Shown: piece after piece, positions 38,655-45,161 of the stretch
How the letters are laid out: every line of letters starts with the position of its first letter
Position numbering within the stretch: position 1 is the stretch's first letter
NCBI RefSeq assembly: GCF_046105845.1
Contig: NZ_CP151004.1
DNA from: Escherichia coli
GTDB taxonomy: Bacteria > Pseudomonadota > Gammaproteobacteria > Enterobacterales > Enterobacteriaceae
Direction: 5' to 3' (one strand)
DNA length: 64,000 bases
Made by a program: the position numbers and the translations under genes
The notes under the pieces: generated by a model
Databases searched by the model: none
The model's input: the letters and a program-made list of their open reading frames with translations, nothing else
Told to the model about the DNA's origin: nothing

Positions 38655-39735
38655 GTCGTGATGTGAACTGACTCAGGAACCTATCAGATTGAGAGTTACC
38701 GTTCTACTATGAGGACCGAATCCTTATATAAAACACTGAGGTAACTCTCATGCTTCATCGTGACAATCTCGCCAGCAAATTCTAAGCTGACTTGCTCAAT
38801 CTGGCTAATGAAGGTGCTATGGATACACAGATAAACCACAGGTGAAATGCCACTCAGCTTAAGAATCACGCAGCTAGTGTTCCTGGCTATGGTTACTTGT
38901 TCACTCTCGCTCACGGTTAGCATATACGAAAACGGTTCTTGTAACGAGGACAAAAATAAGTCAGACCAAAACCACATGGAGCTTTAAACACGGCTCGTAT
39001 AATTTATTAGCAGCGATTTATTTTTACTCTTCTTTAATTAATCATCATGCTTAAATATTTTTTAGCACACGATTATCGCTTCACTAACATTTTAGTTTAC
39101 ATTGATTCCCAATTGACAATAAAAAATTGTTAATAAGTTTTTGCGAAAAATAAAAAGTGTTGAAATACTCTCCAGTAAACGAATGCAAAATAAACAAACT
39201 AAGGTTTACAAAAAACAAAAACTATTCAAAAGAATATTTTTAATTTATTAGCAGAGTCCATTAACAATGGTTTACTCACGAACAGAAAAGTAAAGAACAC
39301 CTTGCAATAATATGTATTTATAAATTCATATCATTGATATTAAACTAATCTTACTTTCTACCCTCCCAACTTCATACACCAAAAAAACAAAGTAAAATCA
39401 ATTATATACACAACAAGGCAATCTCAAAGGAAATAATATTAAATATCTCAAAACTAATAAAAATTACTAAGACATTAGACGTAACACACATCCCACACGC
39501 CCTGTAGCTCATAGCTTTTATATTTATTTTCTCACATCACTGTAGATAAAAACACGCATTAAAAATGACTTGTAGAAAAGCTGCACAATAAATAGTTCAT
39601 ATTTAGTCTGTTGCGTAGAACTACTATTCAAAAAATCTTATTAATGAGATAATGAGATTACATCGATAACGTTCTGATTGCAGGCATACTTATCTGGGTG
39701 TGCCTCTCTTTTTTTACAACTGTACACGGTGGCGT

Positions 39736-40299
39736 ATGACGAGAAAATATCTCACACAGGATGAAGTCTACAGGCTGATGGATGCAGCCCAGAGCATGTC
39801 CTTTCCTGAAAGAAATCGCTGTCTGATTATGATGGCTTTCATTCACGGTTTTAGGGCCAGTGAACTTCTTGATTTACGTTTATCCGATATTGATGCATCT
39901 GGAAAACAACTTAATATTCGGCGTATTAAAAATGGTTTCTCGACAACACATCCTCTTCTTCCTGATGAATATAATTTGATCAAGTTGTGGCTTAAGCAGA
40001 GGAAGTTAATTGAAAACGGAGTTGAAGGAGACTGGCTTTTTCTCTCCCGGAAACGCCGCCCTATCAGCAGACAACATTTTTTTTCTATCATTCGTGAGGC
40101 TGGAAAACGTGCAGGATTAGCTGTAAAAGCACATCCTCATATGTTACGTCATGCCTGTGGTTTTGCTCTGGCTGACAATGGTGTCGATACCCGACTACTT
40201 CAGGATTATCTGGGTCATCGAAATATTCAGCATACTGTCAGATACACAGCCAGTAATGCTGCTCGTTTTAAAGGGGTGTGGAAAAAAAAGCCTCGTTAA
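39736..40299 (+). CDS. Tyrosine site-specific recombinase, FimB/FimE-like
   Basis: ATG at 39736 gives about 187 aa MTRKYLTQDEVYRLMDAAQ...; C-terminal catalytic region HMLRHACGFALADNGVDTRLLQDYLGHRNIQHTVRYT contains the R-H-R-Y tyrosine-recombinase signature, and size and sequence resemble the fim-switch recombinases; gene is visibly AT-rich. Possibly the ipuA homolog (unverified). Confidence 0.85.
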   Translation: MTRKYLTQDEVYRLMDAAQSMSFPERNRCLIMMAFIHGFRASELLDLRLSDIDASGKQLNIRRIKNGFSTTHPLLPDEYNLIKLWLKQRKLIENGVEGDWLFLSRKRRPISRQHFFSIIREAGKRAGLAVKAHPHMLRHACGFALADNGVDTRLLQDYLGHRNIQHTVRYTASNAARFKGVWKKKPR

Positions 40300-40311: not shown

Positions 40312-40327
40312 TGATTCAAAATGTCAG
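40312..40327. repeat. Left inverted repeat of candidate invertible element
   Basis: TGATTCAAAATGTCAG; exact reverse complement occurs at 40574-40589. Confidence 0.85.
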
Positions 40328-40573
40328 ATTCCTACGTTTTCCTCAATTCTTCCATAAAAAAACAGCCCATTCAATTAAATAAAACACATAACATGTTGAT
40401 ATTTCTAGCTAAAGTAAAATAACCCCATGATTTGAAATGATTAATCACAAAGGTCATACCAGTGATTAACTTTTGCTCATATTGTTAAATAGCACAAAAT
40501 TAAAAACAATAAAAATCAAACAAATTAGATTTATATTCCAAGAAAATTAAATATTCAGGCTATTAAACAAAAC

Positions 40574-40589
40574 CTGACATTTTGAATCA
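40574..40589. repeat. Right inverted repeat of candidate invertible element (inside a 31 bp perfect palindrome at 40571-40601)
   Basis: CTGACATTTTGAATCA; the surrounding AACCTGACATTTTG-A-ATCAAAATGTCAGGTT is a perfect palindrome, so this end carries the repeat in both orientations, like paired recombinase half-sites. Confidence 0.85.
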
Positions 40590-40628
40590 AAATGTCAGGT
40601 TTTGTAGCAATGGCGTGGACGAGTCTGA

Positions 40629-41423
40629 ATGAAGAAGCCTCTGGTTATTATCAGTGCCTGTCAGTTCACCAGGCTGGCACTGGAGTCTCTCATCCCAACG
40701 GACAGGTATCTCGTGCGGGTGTACAGCAACGTCACTACAGAGGTTGAATTCATTTTAAAGACCTCCTGTGGCTACCTGTTAGCTGATATCCCTTCGCTTC
40801 CTTCGGGGGAGTTGGTTCTTCTGGCTTGTCTTGTCCGCTTGCGGAGTGATGCCGGGCAATGGCAGGTCTGCCTGACCGGTGACTCCGACTGGTTCGATAA
40901 TGCTCCTGCTGCAAGTCTGTATAACGGCTTCCCACGCATCGGCACCATGCTGACAGCGAGTCGTTATCAGAATCAAATTATCCGCTGGTTACTACGTCCT
41001 TTGCCCGGCGATATGAGTGATTTCTGGCTCCTGACTGCACGGGAGTTGAGCGTGCTTAAGATTCTGATGCAGGGCATGAGTTTCAGTGAGATTGCCCGTT
41101 ATGAACAACGCAGTTCAAAGACCCTGCATGCGATTGCCACACGGGCATTAATGAAACTTGGACTGGGAACTCTGAGCGATTTCAGGCTGCTCTATACGGG
41201 ATGCGGTGACAGCAGAGTGAAACGGAATATACGGCTACATGCAAGATATGTCGGACAACATTCCGCTCATCGACTCACTCAGTATATGCAGAACATGGTA
41301 TCCGGAATTCTTTATCCAGAGAAAGTTGTCGTTGGTGAATCAATAAATTCTGACGCCATATCCGGAAAAGTACTTTCCGGACAAAGAAAAAATATGTCTA
41401 AAAAAAGACCAGGATTGTTATGA
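40629..41423 (+). CDS. LuxR-family transcriptional regulator (C-terminal HTH)
   Basis: 264 aa ORF with ATG start; LuxR-type HTH LTARELSVLKILMQGMSFSEIARYEQRSSKTLHAIATRALMKLGL, closely similar to the HTH of PdeL in this window; no recognisable receiver domain. Confidence 0.8.
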   Translation: MKKPLVIISACQFTRLALESLIPTDRYLVRVYSNVTTEVEFILKTSCGYLLADIPSLPSGELVLLACLVRLRSDAGQWQVCLTGDSDWFDNAPAASLYNGFPRIGTMLTASRYQNQIIRWLLRPLPGDMSDFWLLTARELSVLKILMQGMSFSEIARYEQRSSKTLHAIATRALMKLGLGTLSDFRLLYTGCGDSRVKRNIRLHARYVGQHSAHRLTQYMQNMVSGILYPEKVVVGESINSDAISGKVLSGQRKNMSKKRPGLL

Positions 41424-41522: not shown

Positions 41523-41549
41523 GCACGCTGTACAGCCTGTACAGCGTGC
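41523..41549. other. Perfect 27 bp palindrome between the two regulator genes
   Basis: GCACGCTGTACAG-C-CTGTACAGCGTGC (13 bp arms); not followed by a T-tract, so it may be an operator or RNA structure rather than a simple terminator. Confidence 0.4.
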
Positions 41550-41576: not shown

Positions 41577-42338
41577 ATGCGTTTCGTTCTTTTCTGTCCC
41601 TCAGGAATTGTACCAGCGCAGTTCGCAGCTCTATCAACCGGTTCTGTCGGCAATGTTACCTGCATCGGAACAGAAGAGGAGTTACGCAATAAATTGCGGC
41701 ACAGGCCACAGAGTGTCGTGATATCGGCAGGGCGACCTGCCGAATGCGCTGAAATGTGGTTCCGATTTTATCGGGATCACTCATTCGTGGTGGTGTTGTG
41801 CGTCGCGCCCTTTTTTCTGCCACCGGATGTGAGTATTTCTGGCGTTCTCAAAAACCTGAGGTTACTGAAACCAGGAATGTCAGTAGAGCGTGTCATCAGT
41901 ATTGCAAATGCCTCTGGTGGGTTTTCAGGACTGAAACATGCAGAAAGCTTGCCAGTTATGGACAGTTACTCTGTCTTTATGAAAGAGGTGAATAACCGCA
42001 CAAAGACAATCGTCATGTCAGAACGCTTCCCGGAAAAGCAAAAGAAGGTGTTGTCGTTACTTCTTGCCGGACACAGCTGGGAATACAGTGCGCAATTTCT
42101 CAAAACGGGGATAAGACAGATATGGCTTACCGAGCAGTCGCTAAAAAAGCGTTGGGGAATACCGGACAGCATGTCATTGCGGGAAGCCCTGCTGCTTGGC
42201 AGCAATAAATTTCACGGTGATGGAAACGCATTGGAAACAACGAATGCCATGACATTGCGTGAAAACGGAAATACCAACAGGTATTCCGTGGTGGTAAATG
42301 CAGGGACGCTGGCTTTATCTCTGCATAAATATAAATAA
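41577..42338 (+). CDS. Putative transcriptional regulator with LuxR-like C-terminal HTH
   Basis: 253 aa ORF with ATG start preceded by GAGGGAAGG; HTH-like segment EKQKKVLSLLLAGHSWEYSAQFLKTGIRQIWLTEQSLKKRWGI; AT-rich. Confidence 0.65.
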   Translation: MRFVLFCPSGIVPAQFAALSTGSVGNVTCIGTEEELRNKLRHRPQSVVISAGRPAECAEMWFRFYRDHSFVVVLCVAPFFLPPDVSISGVLKNLRLLKPGMSVERVISIANASGGFSGLKHAESLPVMDSYSVFMKEVNNRTKTIVMSERFPEKQKKVLSLLLAGHSWEYSAQFLKTGIRQIWLTEQSLKKRWGIPDSMSLREALLLGSNKFHGDGNALETTNAMTLRENGNTNRYSVVVNAGTLALSLHKYK

Positions 42339-42379
42339 GTGGGAAATTGAAATTAGTTACCAGAATGGAGAATTTCTTC

Positions 42380-44980
42380 ATGAAAAACAGTAAGGCATTT
42401 TACCGCAGCGCATTAGCAACAGCTATTGTTATGGCTCTTTCTGCCCCAGCATTCGCTGCTGATAACGCGGTATCAACTACACCGGTTACATTGGATAAAG
42501 ATAAGACAACTCTGGATCAAGATGTTGTTATTAACGGTGATAACAAGATTACAGCCGTAACAATTGAGACGTCAGATTCAGATAAAGACCTTAATGTTAC
42601 TTTTGGCGGTCACGATATTACCGCCGCATCAACGGTAAACCAAGATTTCGTTGAAGGTGTAAAAGTTAGCGGTGACAAAAATGTTGTGATTAATGCTACA
42701 GGCTCCACCATCACAGCTCAAGGTGAAGGCACCTATGTCCGGACTGCAATGGTCATTTCTTCAACAGGCGATGTTGTTGTTAATGGCGGTAACTTTGTTG
42801 CAAAAAATGAAAAAGGTAGTGCGACAGGGATATCTCTGGAAGGGACCAAAGGAAATAATGTAACGCTCAATGGCACAACCATAAATGCTCAAGGTAAAAA
42901 TGATTCGAGCAACAGCTCTACGGCAATTTTTGCTCAAAAGGGTAGCGTATTGGATGGGCATGGCTTTAGCGGTGATGCAACCGACAACATTACCCTTGCT
43001 GGCTCAAATATTATTAATGGCCGGATTGAAACAATACTTATTGCTCAGGAGAATACGGGAACTCATACAGTCAACCTGAATATTAAGGATGGCTCAGTAA
43101 TTGGGGCGGCTAATAATAAACAAACAATTTATGCCTCTGCTTCGGCACAAGGAGCAGGTTCAGCAACGCAAAATTTAAATTTATCTGTCGCCGATTCAAC
43201 CATCTACTCTGATATCCGTGCCCTTTCTGCAAGCGAGAATTCAGCCGGTACCACAACAAATGTAAACATGAACGTTGCCCGCTCTTACTGGGAAGGTAAT
43301 GCTTATGCTTATGCTTATGCTTATGCTTATGCTGATGACGATAAAGCGAGTAGTAATCTGAATATAAATCTTTCCGATGGCTCAGTCTGGAAAGGAAATG
43401 TTGCGGGTAATACGACTACTGGCAGCACCGGTACTACAGAAAACCAGTCAGCAACCGTAAGTCTGTCTGATTCCACCTGGAAAGGTAACGTGGGTGACGG
43501 TCTGGATGGTGGTGCGCGAGTCACGCTGAAAAACTCCAGCTGGACTGGTGATGTCAGCAACGCCAAAACGGCTGTTGTTCTGACGGATGGTTCTGTGTGG
43601 AATGGTGCCATTAACAGCAATCCTGTTGCAGGAAGTCATGCAGTGGCTGCTGCCGGCAGCACTGATGCAGGTACTTTGACTCCATCTACGTTAGCCGGTC
43701 AGACAGTTGCACTTGCCGGCTCCACCTGGAATGTTACCGGTGATTCTTCTGTTCTTGGCGTCACTGCTGTAAACAGCACCATCAGTGTGAAAGATGCCTC
43801 CCTGACAACTCAGGTTCTTTCTGCAAAAGACAGCAATCTTGTTGTTGATGCAGGTACAACCAATGCTCTGAATGTCACAGGGAAAGCTACCGGTAATGTG
43901 ACAGTTTATAACGCTGGTACCGTAGACTTGAAAGATGCAAAAACAGCATTCATTACTGTTGGTGAAGGCAGTGACCTGAAAGCCACAGGCACAACGGAAG
44001 GTGGTCTGTATCAATATGACCTGACACAGGGAGCTGATGGTAACTTTTATTTCGTAAAAAACACGCATAAAGCATCCAACGCCAGCTCCGTGATTCAGGC
44101 AATGGCAGCTGCTCCGGCTAACGTCGCTAATCTGCAGGCTGACACGCTCTCCGCCCGTCAGGATGCTGTCCGTCTGAGCGAAAATGACGAGGGTGGCGTA
44201 TGGATTCAGTACTTTGGCGGTAAACAGAAACATACCACCGCAGGAAATGCATCCTATGACCTGGATGTAAACGGTGTAATGCTGGGTGGTGATACCCGCT
44301 TCATGACTGAAGATGGTAGCTGGCTGGCCGGTGTGGCGATGTCTTCTGCGAAAGGTGACATGACTACCATGCAGAGCAAAGGTGACACAGAAGGTTACAG
44401 CTTCCACGCTTACCTGAGCCGCCAGTATAACAACGGTATCTTCATTGATACTGCTGCACAGTTTGGTCACTACAGCAACACGGCAGATGTTCGCCTGATG
44501 AATGGTGGCGGTACCATCAAAGCTGACTTTAACACCAATGGTTTCGGTGCGATGGTTAAAGGCGGTTACACATGGAAAGACGGTAATGGCCTGTTTATTC
44601 AGCCATATGCCAAACTGTCTGCGCTGACGCTGGAAGGTGTGGATTATCAACTCAACGGCGTGGACGTTCATTCTGACAGCTATAACTCTGTGCTGGGTGA
44701 GGCCGGTACGCGCGTGGGTTATGACTTCGCTGTGGGCAACGCGACCGTTAAACCTTATCTGAATCTGGCCGCACTGAACGAATTCTCTGATGGCAACAAA
44801 GTCCGTCTGGGTGATGAGTCTGTCAATACCAGCATTGACGGTGCAGCATTCCGCGTGGGTGCAGGTGTACAGGCTGATATCACCAAAAACATGGGAGCAT
44901 ATGCTAGCCTTGACTACACCAAAGGTGACGACATTGAGAACCCGCTACAGGGTGTAGTTGGTATCAATGTGACCTGGTAA
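42380..44980 (+). CDS. Autotransporter (type Va) adhesin-like protein
   Basis: ATG at 42380 preceded by GGAG; N-terminal signal peptide MKNSKAFYRSALATAIVMALSAPAFA; passenger with repeated S-x-W-x-G-N/D motifs; C-terminal beta-barrel translocator ending ...GVVGINVTW. Track start 42347 is a TTG. Possibly the upaE homolog (unverified). Confidence 0.85.
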   Translation: MKNSKAFYRSALATAIVMALSAPAFAADNAVSTTPVTLDKDKTTLDQDVVINGDNKITAVTIETSDSDKDLNVTFGGHDITAASTVNQDFVEGVKVSGDKNVVINATGSTITAQGEGTYVRTAMVISSTGDVVVNGGNFVAKNEKGSATGISLEGTKGNNVTLNGTTINAQGKNDSSNSSTAIFAQKGSVLDGHGFSGDATDNITLAGSNIINGRIETILIAQENTGTHTVNLNIKDGSVIGAANNKQTIYASASAQGAGSATQNLNLSVADSTIYSDIRALSASENSAGTTTNVNMNVARSYWEGNAYAYAYAYAYADDDKASSNLNINLSDGSVWKGNVAGNTTTGSTGTTENQSATVSLSDSTWKGNVGDGLDGGARVTLKNSSWTGDVSNAKTAVVLTDGSVWNGAINSNPVAGSHAVAAAGSTDAGTLTPSTLAGQTVALAGSTWNVTGDSSVLGVTAVNSTISVKDASLTTQVLSAKDSNLVVDAGTTNALNVTGKATGNVTVYNAGTVDLKDAKTAFITVGEGSDLKATGTTEGGLYQYDLTQGADGNFYFVKNTHKASNASSVIQAMAAAPANVANLQADTLSARQDAVRLSENDEGGVWIQYFGGKQKHTTAGNASYDLDVNGVMLGGDTRFMTEDGSWLAGVAMSSAKGDMTTMQSKGDTEGYSFHAYLSRQYNNGIFIDTAAQFGHYSNTADVRLMNGGGTIKADFNTNGFGAMVKGGYTWKDGNGLFIQPYAKLSALTLEGVDYQLNGVDVHSDSYNSVLGEAGTRVGYDFAVGNATVKPYLNLAALNEFSDGNKVRLGDESVNTSIDGAAFRVGAGVQADITKNMGAYASLDYTKGDDIENPLQGVVGINVTW
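43301..43330 (+). repeat. Tandem hexanucleotide repeat (GCTTAT)x5 inside the autotransporter gene, encoding (Ala-Tyr)5
   Basis: Five perfect GCTTAT units followed by a degenerate GCTGAT; translated as NAYAYAYAYAYADDD in the passenger domain. Confidence 0.9.
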
Positions 44981-45018
44981 GAATAAAGCAGTCGGTTCCC
45001 CTGTCGACTGTTATACCC

Positions 45019-45083
45019 CCTGCAGGCAGCATACTGCTGCCTGCAGGCCATAAATATCCAGTATTCATGATGCTGGTTTTTTG
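45019..45083 (+). terminator. Palindrome plus hairpin/T-tract downstream of the autotransporter gene
   Basis: Perfect palindrome CCTGCAGGCAGCA-TAC-TGCTGCCTGCAGG (45019-45047) followed by CCAGTATTCATGATGCTGG-TTTTTTG (45058-45083). Confidence 0.45.
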
Positions 45084-45161
45084 CTGATATTTAACCCGAA
45101 CACTCCTGATACAGACTATTAATTCATTTATCTGCGACAGATTTCATTTTCTGGATATATT

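Follow-up and report, generated by a model that had tools for sequence, protein, structure and literature searches.

The window, a 64 000-nucleotide stretch of Escherichia coli DNA (contig NZ_CP151004.1), carries the gene order betA, fimX/ipbA, hyxS, hyxR, hyxA, upaB and ykgH, in which betA and ykgH flank a genomic island and upaB is the last island gene. The features considered here are the following, with positions counted from the first letter of the window.

39736..40299, + strand: fimX (ipbA/hbiF), the Fim-type tyrosine DNA invertase of PAI-X, 187 aa
40312..40589, no strand assigned: hyxS invertible element, 278 bp, with IRL at 40312-40327 (TGATTCAAAATGTCAG), IRR at 40574-40589 and an interior of 246 bp
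40629..41423, + strand: hyxR, LuxR-family regulator, 264 aa (RefSeq name HyxR)
41523..41549, no strand assigned: perfect 27-bp palindrome, GCACGCTGTACAG-C-CTGTACAGCGTGC, in the hyxR-hyxA spacer, 27 nt upstream of hyxA
41577..42338, + strand: hyxA, 253 aa (RefSeq 'protein HyxA')
42380..44980, + strand: upaB/hyxB autotransporter gene, 866 aa plus stop, assigned from 6BEA, PF03797, AF2 and Foldseek; signal peptide aa 1-26, passenger aa 27-566, linker helix aa 567-599, barrel aa 607-866
43299..43337, + strand: hexanucleotide repeat ATGCTT, 6.5 copies, encoding (AY)n in frame (Tandem Repeats Finder score 71)
43304..43984, + strand: variable mosaic passenger cassette, aa 309-535, delimited by alignment to the 763-aa HyxB
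45058..45083, + strand: intrinsic terminator-like hairpin and T-run from a terminator scan, closing the unit before ykgH

The upaB frame was opened at an ATG with GGAG 9 nt 5′ of it, where the program-made list of open reading frames opens it at a TTG at 42347 (877 aa) instead; the same 2601-nt coding sequence is present in the RefSeq annotation of a 99.9%-identical genome. The signal peptide (MKNSKAFYRSALATAIVMALSAPAFA, cleaved before A), read directly from the sequence, carries basic residues at K2, K5 and R9; its core at aa 11-22 is hydrophobic, and aa 24-27 form the cleavage motif AFA-A. All six passenger tryptophans (304, 337, 367, 388, 407 and 450) lie within S-x-W, five fit S-x-W-x-G and four the strict form S-x-W-x-G-[ND], and these counts were reached by none of 20 000 shuffles of the passenger. 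The AF2 model (pLDDT 86.1) was all-beta over aa 30-565, followed by a helix at aa 567-599 and a barrel at aa 607-864; a Foldseek search with the model matched the passenger to the beta-helix of 6BEA (E 9.5e-45, TMt 0.73) and the barrel to that of BrkA (TMt 0.92). The C-terminal domain was also matched by PF03797 in Pfam (aa 607-844, E 1.5e-47), by TIGR01414 in NCBIfam (237 bits) and by the BrkA beta-domain 3QQ2 (aa 588-856), and the protein ends in GINVTW, with W866 as aromatic beta-signal. UpaB of the window is a classical (type Va) monomeric autotransporter, with signal peptide, beta-helix, linker and barrel, and C-terminal aromatic residue all present. The preliminary description had given an 866-aa frame with a Sec signal peptide, repeated S-x-W-x-G-N/D motifs in the passenger and a C-terminal barrel ending in tryptophan, and had named the Pfam autotransporter barrel as the domain to look for; each of these points was borne out. 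Type Va proteins cross the inner membrane by Sec, their 12-stranded barrel enters the outer membrane via BAM, and the passenger is threaded out and retained at the surface. UpaB would take the same route, its C-terminal barrel being inserted through BAM after inner-membrane crossing and its beta-helical passenger being displayed on the surface.

The gene encodes UpaB (synonym HyxB), the PAI-X adhesin autotransporter of E. coli, which has already been described, and what had been put forward as a candidate autotransporter adhesin is a rediscovery of this protein; UpaB/HyxB, PAI-X and hyxS are all already known. The crystal structure of CFT073 UpaB (PDB 6BEA) matched the passenger with E 6.1e-200 in two stretches (aa 26-344 and 446-590), and the syntenic gene is named hyxB in RefSeq, where it is flanked by ipbA, hyxR, hyxA and ykgH. 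In the published nomenclature hyxB is upaB, and PAI-X consists of fimX plus hyxRAB (Phan 2013). The island was found in about one-third of complete E. coli genomes, and hyxR in 1852 of 5426. CFT073 UpaB (c0426; 6BEA; PMC6488583) shares its locus and neighbours with the window, and its signal peptide, the N-terminal 300 passenger residues, autochaperone region, linker and barrel are near-identical; starting from the same ATG, the CFT073/canonical protein has 763-765 aa, whereas the window protein has 866, the addition being about 100 residues (three rungs plus a loop) and (AY)n.

For the CFT073 passenger, binding of fibronectin and of glycosaminoglycan-like polysaccharides has been mapped (PMC6488583). 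Compared with that protein, the window allele is identical at 5 of 7 residues of the glycosaminoglycan groove and at 8 of 10 residues of the fibronectin ladder (13 of 17 in all), the differences being N200S, Q203D, D119G and D217G, two per site. By homology we infer that the window passenger may bind both ligands; with two residues changed in each site, such binding is putative for this allele. It is for the CFT073 allele only that published summaries describe adhesion to proteins of the extracellular matrix and a part in bladder colonization.

The element upstream of hyxR is a real Fim-type switch: a recombinase of the Fim subfamily lies adjacent, the element is bounded by short inverted repeats, and both orientations occur. 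FimX of the window is identical to RefSeq WP_001295805.1 (IpbA/FimX), its gene is intact, and it scored 251.6 bits against NCBIfam NF007370 (cutoff 221). The inverted repeats are perfect over 16 bp, the length at which hyxS has been described (PMC6083910). In a junction census, 1785 genomes had the orientation of the window and about 12-18 were inverted (18 in total, 12 at >=97% identity), so that about 99% of assemblies have hyxS oriented as in the window. Strain 2A gave a clean inversion, with 241 of 246 interior positions identical as the reverse complement and with identical flanks. Inversion of hyxS is reportedly IHF-independent.

The promoter content of hyxS was assessed with a sigma-70 consensus scan. 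The only 9/12-class match with an extended -10 that is aimed at hyxR (TTGAAT-17-TGgAAGAAT, a consensus match in AT-rich DNA) points that way after inversion; no 9/12-class promoter was found by the scan in hyxS as presently oriented or upstream of upaB. The scan found fewer sites than were found in shuffled sequence and therefore carries little weight. Laboratory strains of CFT073 have been described as hyxS OFF (PMC6083910). From this weak consensus scan and by analogy, hyxS in the window, in its common orientation, is probably OFF.

HyxR has a GerE/LuxR helix-turn-helix (PF00196, aa 135-181, E 3.9e-6), and a blastn search for a paralogue of hyxR such as ipuR returned none at DNA level. HyxA had no match in Pfam, NCBIfam or PDB sequences, no detectable DNA-binding or regulator domain and, by BLASTP, no similarity to HyxR; apparent distant HyxA homologues were rejected as frame-shifted translations of the same DNA, and the single-sequence AF2 model was unreliable (pLDDT 43). 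HyxA as a second regulator was thus left unconfirmed. The autotransporter gene had been placed directly downstream of two regulators: the position holds, with upaB beginning 41 nt after the hyxA stop, but only HyxR is recognizable as a regulator. In the spacer between the two genes, the 27-bp palindrome, which forms a 13-bp stem when folded as RNA, occurs once in the window; it was exact in 7 of 8 PAI-X loci and had one mismatch in the eighth. It could serve transcription attenuation or separate control of hyxA-upaB.

The three genes hyxR, hyxA and upaB lie on the same strand with spacers of 153 nt (hyxR-hyxA) and 41 nt (hyxA-upaB), the latter identical in 8 loci. Neither a terminator scan nor RNA folding revealed a terminator-like site in either spacer, and downstream of upaB the fold of 44975-45100 comprised three hairpins (z = -6.6). 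The same strand, the short conserved spacer and the strong terminator after but not before upaB together support a single transcription unit, and this anatomy makes it plausible that hyxR, hyxA and upaB are co-transcribed. The same unit is favoured by a HyxR homologue that lies directly upstream of a distant UpaB-like gene and by the operon known from the ipuS system, both treated below. The wording 'hyxRAB operon' is already in print (PMC11294581, PMC12922286), and the operon has been reported as up-regulated in RNA-seq. Control of upaB by the hyxS switch, likewise already proposed in print, is plausible on the same sequence grounds. In the accessible literature, which relates the primary reports (Bateman & Seed 2012; Allsopp 2012) at second hand, no experiment was found that ties upaB transcript or protein to hyxS orientation or to HyxR.

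A close known parallel is ipuS-ipuR-upaE of CFT073 (Battaglioli 2018, PMC6083910). Like the present locus, it combines a recombinase of the Fim type with an invertible element (about 260-280 bp), followed by the genes for a LuxR-type regulator and for an autotransporter adhesin on the same strand. FimX also acts on ipuS, and ipuS has been shown experimentally to drive ipuR plus upaE as one operon (PMC6083910). Autotransporter control is demonstrated for ipuS, whereas for hyxS and upaB it is inferred; the repeats of hyxS are 16 bp against 7 bp in ipuS, and hyxA is an extra gene between hyxR and upaB. In the fimS switch of type 1 fimbriae (FimB, FimE), a promoter is likewise inverted by tyrosine recombinases of this subfamily, and FimX flips it too, but fimS has 9-bp repeats and serves a chaperone-usher operon, whereas the target of hyxS, with its 16-bp repeats, is a regulator plus autotransporter unit. 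The STM0716 switch of the Salmonella T1-antigen locus (PMC11294581) has a FimX orthologue 72% identical and repeats reported as identical in sequence, and STM0718 is 39% identical to HyxA (PMC11294581); that switch controls a polysaccharide gene cluster, whereas hyxS adjoins an autotransporter unit.

The account that we consider likely is that the UpaB/HyxB adhesin is encoded by the last gene of a hyxS-driven hyxR-hyxA-upaB unit, is phase-variable by read-through and is probably OFF in the window. Most transcription would start from a promoter within the 278-bp element inverted by FimX, and surface UpaB would vary in phase through read-through rather than through a regulator cascade; with the switch in the common and probably OFF orientation, low basal expression would still be possible. 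The gene layout is accounted for by simple read-through from the promoter of the switch no less well than by HyxR-dependent activation. The proposal that the autotransporter is phase-variable through a switch and two regulators was in this way upheld in part: the single-unit anatomy speaks for switch control, and the cascade is not supported as stated, no DNA-binding domain having been detected in HyxA.

Some observations do not fit strict coupling to the switch. Mutants with phenotypes have been reported for hyxR and hyxA in EC958 and for ehaF in EHEC, and reviews cite phenotypes for upaB mutants of CFT073. With about 99% of assemblies in the common orientation and phenotypes nevertheless seen in mutants, either that state allows some expression or upaB is served by a further promoter; what upaB and ehaF mutants of wild-type strains show suggests that expression does not depend strictly on a rare switch state. 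It is possible, though we think it rather unlikely, that hyxS governs only hyxR and that upaB, alone or with hyxA, has its own promoter answering to other signals (relief from H-NS, biofilm growth or host cues), in which case UpaB would not be phase-variable. Published work on hyxS, as later papers summarise it, speaks only of control of hyxR; patient antibodies, together with the mutant phenotypes, show production of UpaB/EhaF by strains in which hyxS nearly always has the common orientation; upaB mRNA is raised in CFT073 biofilm and heterogeneous among isolates; and the conserved palindrome between hyxR and hyxA fits a separate control point. Against such independence, no sigma-70-like site of at least 9/12 was found in the 3′ end of hyxA or in the 41-nt spacer, the genes are tightly spaced with no terminator before upaB, hyxRAB has been reported as up-regulated as an operon, and the analogous ipuS system co-transcribes its autotransporter with the regulator.

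A cascade like that proposed in the preliminary description, in which the switch turns HyxR on, and HyxR, possibly with HyxA, activates a hyxA-upaB promoter, for instance via the 27-bp palindrome, is to our judgement improbable. The LuxR-type helix-turn-helix of HyxR and the conserved perfect palindrome, of the type bound by dimeric regulators and only 27 nt upstream of hyxA, are consistent with it, as is the retention, directly upstream of a UpaB-like gene in a distant relative without a recombinase, of a homologue of HyxR (32% identity, E 2e-25). Binding of the palindrome by HyxR and activation from it are, on the other hand, only putative; HyxR has been described as a repressor, of hmpA; no DNA-binding domain was detected in HyxA; and the palindrome might just as well be a hairpin in the RNA. 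Read-through from hyxS is retained here as the preferred reading.

The sole oddity of this otherwise ordinary upaB is that it is a rare, longer, mosaic allele. Compared with the canonical 763-aa HyxB, the window protein is 87% identical with a gap of about 100 aa. The extra residues of the cassette make up three additional S-x-W-x-G rungs and a 23-aa low-confidence loop, and over aa 446-535 identity to canonical HyxB falls to only about 50%. As 95% of UpaB sequences share >89% identity (Paxman 2019, PMC6488583), the allele belongs to the divergent UpaB minority. UpaB alleles of 763, 820, 860, 862 and 866 aa were seen, differing in the number of S-x-W-x-G rungs. The full cassette was present in 5 of 5426 complete E. 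coli genomes, each time at the PAI-X upaB locus; a donor sought in these 5426 genomes by megablast and blastn was not found outside upaB, and when the cassette was used as query in a word-indexed protein search, the one match was a fragment of 207 aa, uninformative on the donor. Recent DNA duplication as the source of the extra rungs was rejected, direct-repeat analysis having shown similarity only in 19-nt motif cores.

Perfect ATGCTT copies numbered five in the window allele and in two of the six other loci compared, two in one, six in another and none in the remaining two. Because the unit is 6 nt long, a change in repeat number stays in frame, and frame-shifting phase variation through this repeat was rejected. 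The extra rungs, disordered loop and (AY)n, in the membrane-proximal passenger, would lengthen the stalk and alter antigenicity and would spare the mapped binding faces. A reading in which display of UpaB is controlled in two layers, by hyxS inversion acting via HyxR with the 27-bp palindrome as HyxR operator and by a length- and sequence-variable cassette and (AY)n that diversify stalk length and antigenicity, is doubtful; nothing of this reading was found in the literature searched.

EhaF (z0390) of EHEC O157:H7 (PMC10090168) belongs, as an allele, to the same PAI-X/OI-14 locus. Its passenger resembles that of UpaB, and EhaF is reported to be secreted, of about 42 kDa, and to target host TFE3 (PMC10090168). 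In O157 genomes ipbA-hyxR-hyxA lie upstream and the gene is annotated as split into an 'adhesin' and a separate barrel protein, whereas the window allele is full length. That the long allele is decaying or non-functional, its insertion and repeat disrupting folding or secretion, is very improbable: although some lineages have split or disrupted alleles, as annotated for O157:H7, and RefSeq gives the window allele no hyxB name, its reading frame runs through all 866 aa without a break, signal peptide, linker and barrel being intact, AF2 predicted confident beta rungs at aa 356-409 and the insert as regular rungs (pLDDT 74-98), a 46%-identical relative is also multi-rung with an even longer rung array, and the exact protein recurs on 20 contigs.

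The main result for the window is its correct annotation, as a PAI-X island with hyxS in the common orientation. UpaB has been characterized experimentally as an adhesin and colonization factor of uropathogenic E. coli, and for its EHEC allele EhaF a dampening of innate immunity has been reported (PMC10090168). As the rare long allele shows, strains differ in the stalk region of the passenger, the mapped binding faces being mostly conserved. Phase variability of UpaB display, if it holds, would bear on ideas for vaccines and anti-adhesion strategies.

Between 35.5 and 48 kb the window was found to consist of E. coli chromosome in the order betB, betA, a low-GC insert, ykgH and ykgG/ykgF, the insert having a GC content of 26-46% between 39.0 and 45.5 kb and carrying four genes, all on the plus strand. 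The first three were named according to the RefSeq annotation of a 99.9%-identical stretch in E. coli O169:H41 strain Res13-Lact-PER13-34; the fourth is labelled 'autotransporter outer membrane beta-barrel domain-containing protein' there and hyxB in most other genomes (RefSeq).

Features of the island (window positions)
39736..40299, plus strand: tyrosine recombinase (ipbA = FimX/HbiF), 187 aa
40312-40327 and 40574-40589: perfect 16-bp inverted repeats of hyxS, a 278-bp element
40629..41423, plus strand: hyxR, 264 aa
41577..42338, plus strand: hyxA, 253 aa
42380..44980, plus strand: autotransporter ORF (upaB/hyxB), 866 aa, with GGAG 9 nt 5' of the ATG
43299-43337: hexanucleotide repeat encoding (AY)n, in frame within upaB

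PAI-X was described by Phan et al. 2013 as fimX plus hyxRAB, with upaB as another name for hyxB. A 6.6-kb island query was matched over at least 80% of its length in 1528 of 5426 complete genomes, and hyxR was found in 1852 of the 5426; the island is common, and these counts agree with the published frequency of 34% (PMC6488583). At its left end, an ORF-free stretch of approximately 700 bp with 26% GC (39000-39700) lies 5' of fimX, and a 93-aa ORF, 'hypothetical protein' in some genomes, is located just past betA on the minus strand (38696..38977).

All sequence features listed for the autotransporter in the preliminary description were confirmed. The N-terminus has the typical form of a Sec signal peptide (MKNSKAFYRSALATAIVMALSAPAFA/A) and the last residue is W. 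All six passenger tryptophans occur in S-x-W and 5/6 in S-x-W-x-G, counts reached by none of 20000 passenger shuffles. The domain search that had been proposed returned Pfam PF03797 at aa 607-844 (E 1.5e-47) and TIGR01414 (237 bits). The AlphaFold2 model (mean pLDDT 86.1) comprised an all-beta passenger (aa 30-565), a helix (aa 567-599) and a barrel (aa 607-864), matched by Foldseek to UpaB 6BEA (E 9.5e-45, TMt 0.73) for the passenger and to the BrkA beta-domain (TMt 0.92) for the barrel. The gene has all defining features of a type Va autotransporter. By sequence, the passenger matched the crystallised UpaB alpha-domain of uropathogenic E. coli CFT073 with E 6.1e-200; given the 6BEA match and the published equivalence of hyxB and upaB, the ORF is a rediscovery of UpaB/HyxB, by position as well as by homology. 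Published work portrays CFT073 UpaB as an adhesin on the cell surface that attaches to fibronectin and GAG-like polysaccharides and favours bladder colonisation; the allele found at this locus in O157:H7 has been described as EhaF (PMC10090168).

The one trait of published UpaB that the window protein lacks is the >89% identity typical of 95% of UpaB sequences (PMC6488583); it falls outside this range because of its variable passenger cassette (aa 309-535). Compared with a canonical 763-aa HyxB, it is near-identical over aa 1-308 and 535-866, with approximately 100 extra residues between, comprising three additional S-x-W-x-G rungs and a 23-aa segment (aa 417-439) left disordered by AF2; over aa 446-535 identity drops to about half. 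The complete cassette was found in 5/5426 genomes and never outside this locus, partial versions mark other allele classes, and allele lengths of 763, 820, 860, 862 and 866 aa were observed. The exact 866-aa protein is already public, unnamed, on 20 contigs. Among 1.84 billion proteins its passenger has just 38 cluster representatives, a very small family. Repeat analysis rejected the extra rungs as recent duplications. A metagenome contig (ERZ28598476; locus L009, 4435-8613) encodes an 870-aa UpaB-like autotransporter with 46% identity and eight S-x-W-x-G rungs, which suggests that the long form is ancestral and that CFT073 carries a shortened one. Residue numbers in Paxman 2019 (PMC6488583) equal the window numbering plus 11, an offset that fits use of an upstream TTG at 42347 as the CFT073 start; with this mapping, 5/7 GAG-groove and 8/10 fibronectin-ladder residues were identical, and all mapped residues lie upstream of the cassette. 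The (AY)n repeat has 0, 2, 5 or 6 perfect copies across alleles, always in frame, and it may be speculated that its slippage lies behind some recurrent 'hyxB mutations' of short-read evolution experiments (PMC12282228).

The hyxS repeats, located between the recombinase stop (40299) and the hyxR start (40629), agree with the published length of 16 bp (PMC6083910), and FimX is intact, with the same protein sequence as the reference. Orientation was surveyed in complete genomes using two 116-nt junction queries, one per orientation; 1785 genomes had the window state and 18 the opposite, of which 12 matched with at least 97% identity and six come from what may be a diverged island variant. In strain 2A, 241/246 positions of the 246-bp interior were identical as the reverse complement and both flanks were identical; together with the survey, this shows that the element inverts in nature and that the window holds its common state. 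In its structure, the locus corresponds to a Fim-type invertible switch. In a consensus scan, the sole sigma-70-like match with an extended -10 aimed at hyxR arises after inversion, and laboratory derivatives of CFT073 are described as hyxS OFF (PMC6083910); on these two grounds the window switch is probably OFF.

In the six diverged genomes (H137-H142, e.g. NZ_CP071259.1, strain MEI005) the inverted-junction query was only 88-90% identical and the recombinase is annotated 'DNA recombinase'; they may represent a PAI-X variant with a different common switch orientation or sequence. In strain CUVET18-565, which has the rare orientation (NZ_CP115320.1; locus L007, 3190-4403), ipbA and hyxR are separated by an IS3-family element, which could leave the switch locked or disrupted. 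The right hyxS repeat lies within a 19+19-nt perfect palindrome followed by TTTTGT (40567-40605; RNA fold -33.7 kcal/mol, z -8.1), whose 12-bp core stem is kept in both orientations, and the repeat recurs a third time, as a near-copy (15/16), just outside the switch at 40584-40599.

The proposal that upaB is phase-variable through this switch was partly supported. Of the two regulators placed upstream, HyxR has a GerE/LuxR helix-turn-helix, whereas HyxA had no match in Pfam, NCBIfam or PDB sequences. Read-through from the putative hyxS promoter is, on balance, the best candidate for the main input to upaB. The genes hyxR, hyxA and upaB share a strand and are separated by 153 and 41 nt, the shorter spacer being identical across eight loci; a terminator scan and RNA folding gave no terminator-like site in either spacer, and a hairpin with a T-run is present 3' of upaB. 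Two papers refer to a 'hyxRAB operon' (PMC11294581, PMC12922286), one of them describing hyxRAB as strongly up in one clone whatever the growth condition, the pattern expected of a flipped switch. In the analogous ipuS system of CFT073, experiments established that element orientation drives a LuxR-type gene together with upaE as one operon (PMC6083910); for upaB, no experiment linking expression to hyxS or HyxR was found in the accessible literature. The metagenomic locus, on an unrelated contig, also counts in favour, with a homologue of HyxR (32% identity, E 2e-25) directly 5' of the UpaB-like gene and no recombinase or obvious switch present, so that the regulator-autotransporter pair appears to predate the switch. 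An unrelated 199-aa ORF also precedes the UpaB-like gene there. The stretch from the upaB stop to the terminator contains two more strong hairpins (44987-45047), one a GC-rich 13-bp stem of REP-like appearance (45019-45047; fold of 44975-45100, z = -6.6).

Against switch control, wild-type strains show phenotypes when hyxR, hyxA, upaB or ehaF is mutated, although one switch state accounts for 99% of assemblies. An independent upaB promoter was considered unlikely. Also to be set against switch control is a conserved 27-bp perfect palindrome in the hyxR-hyxA spacer (41523-41549; GCACGCTGTACAG-C-CTGTACAGCGTGC), exact in 7/8 PAI-X loci examined and with no T-run 3' of it, which could serve a dimeric regulator as its operator or could act as an RNA hairpin. 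A genuine HyxR-dependent step, compatible with read-through, was judged more doubtful still.

As the gene, the island, the switch and the operon idea have all been published, the system is already known, and its residual interest lies in the uncommon long allele and in the putative link between switch and adhesin.
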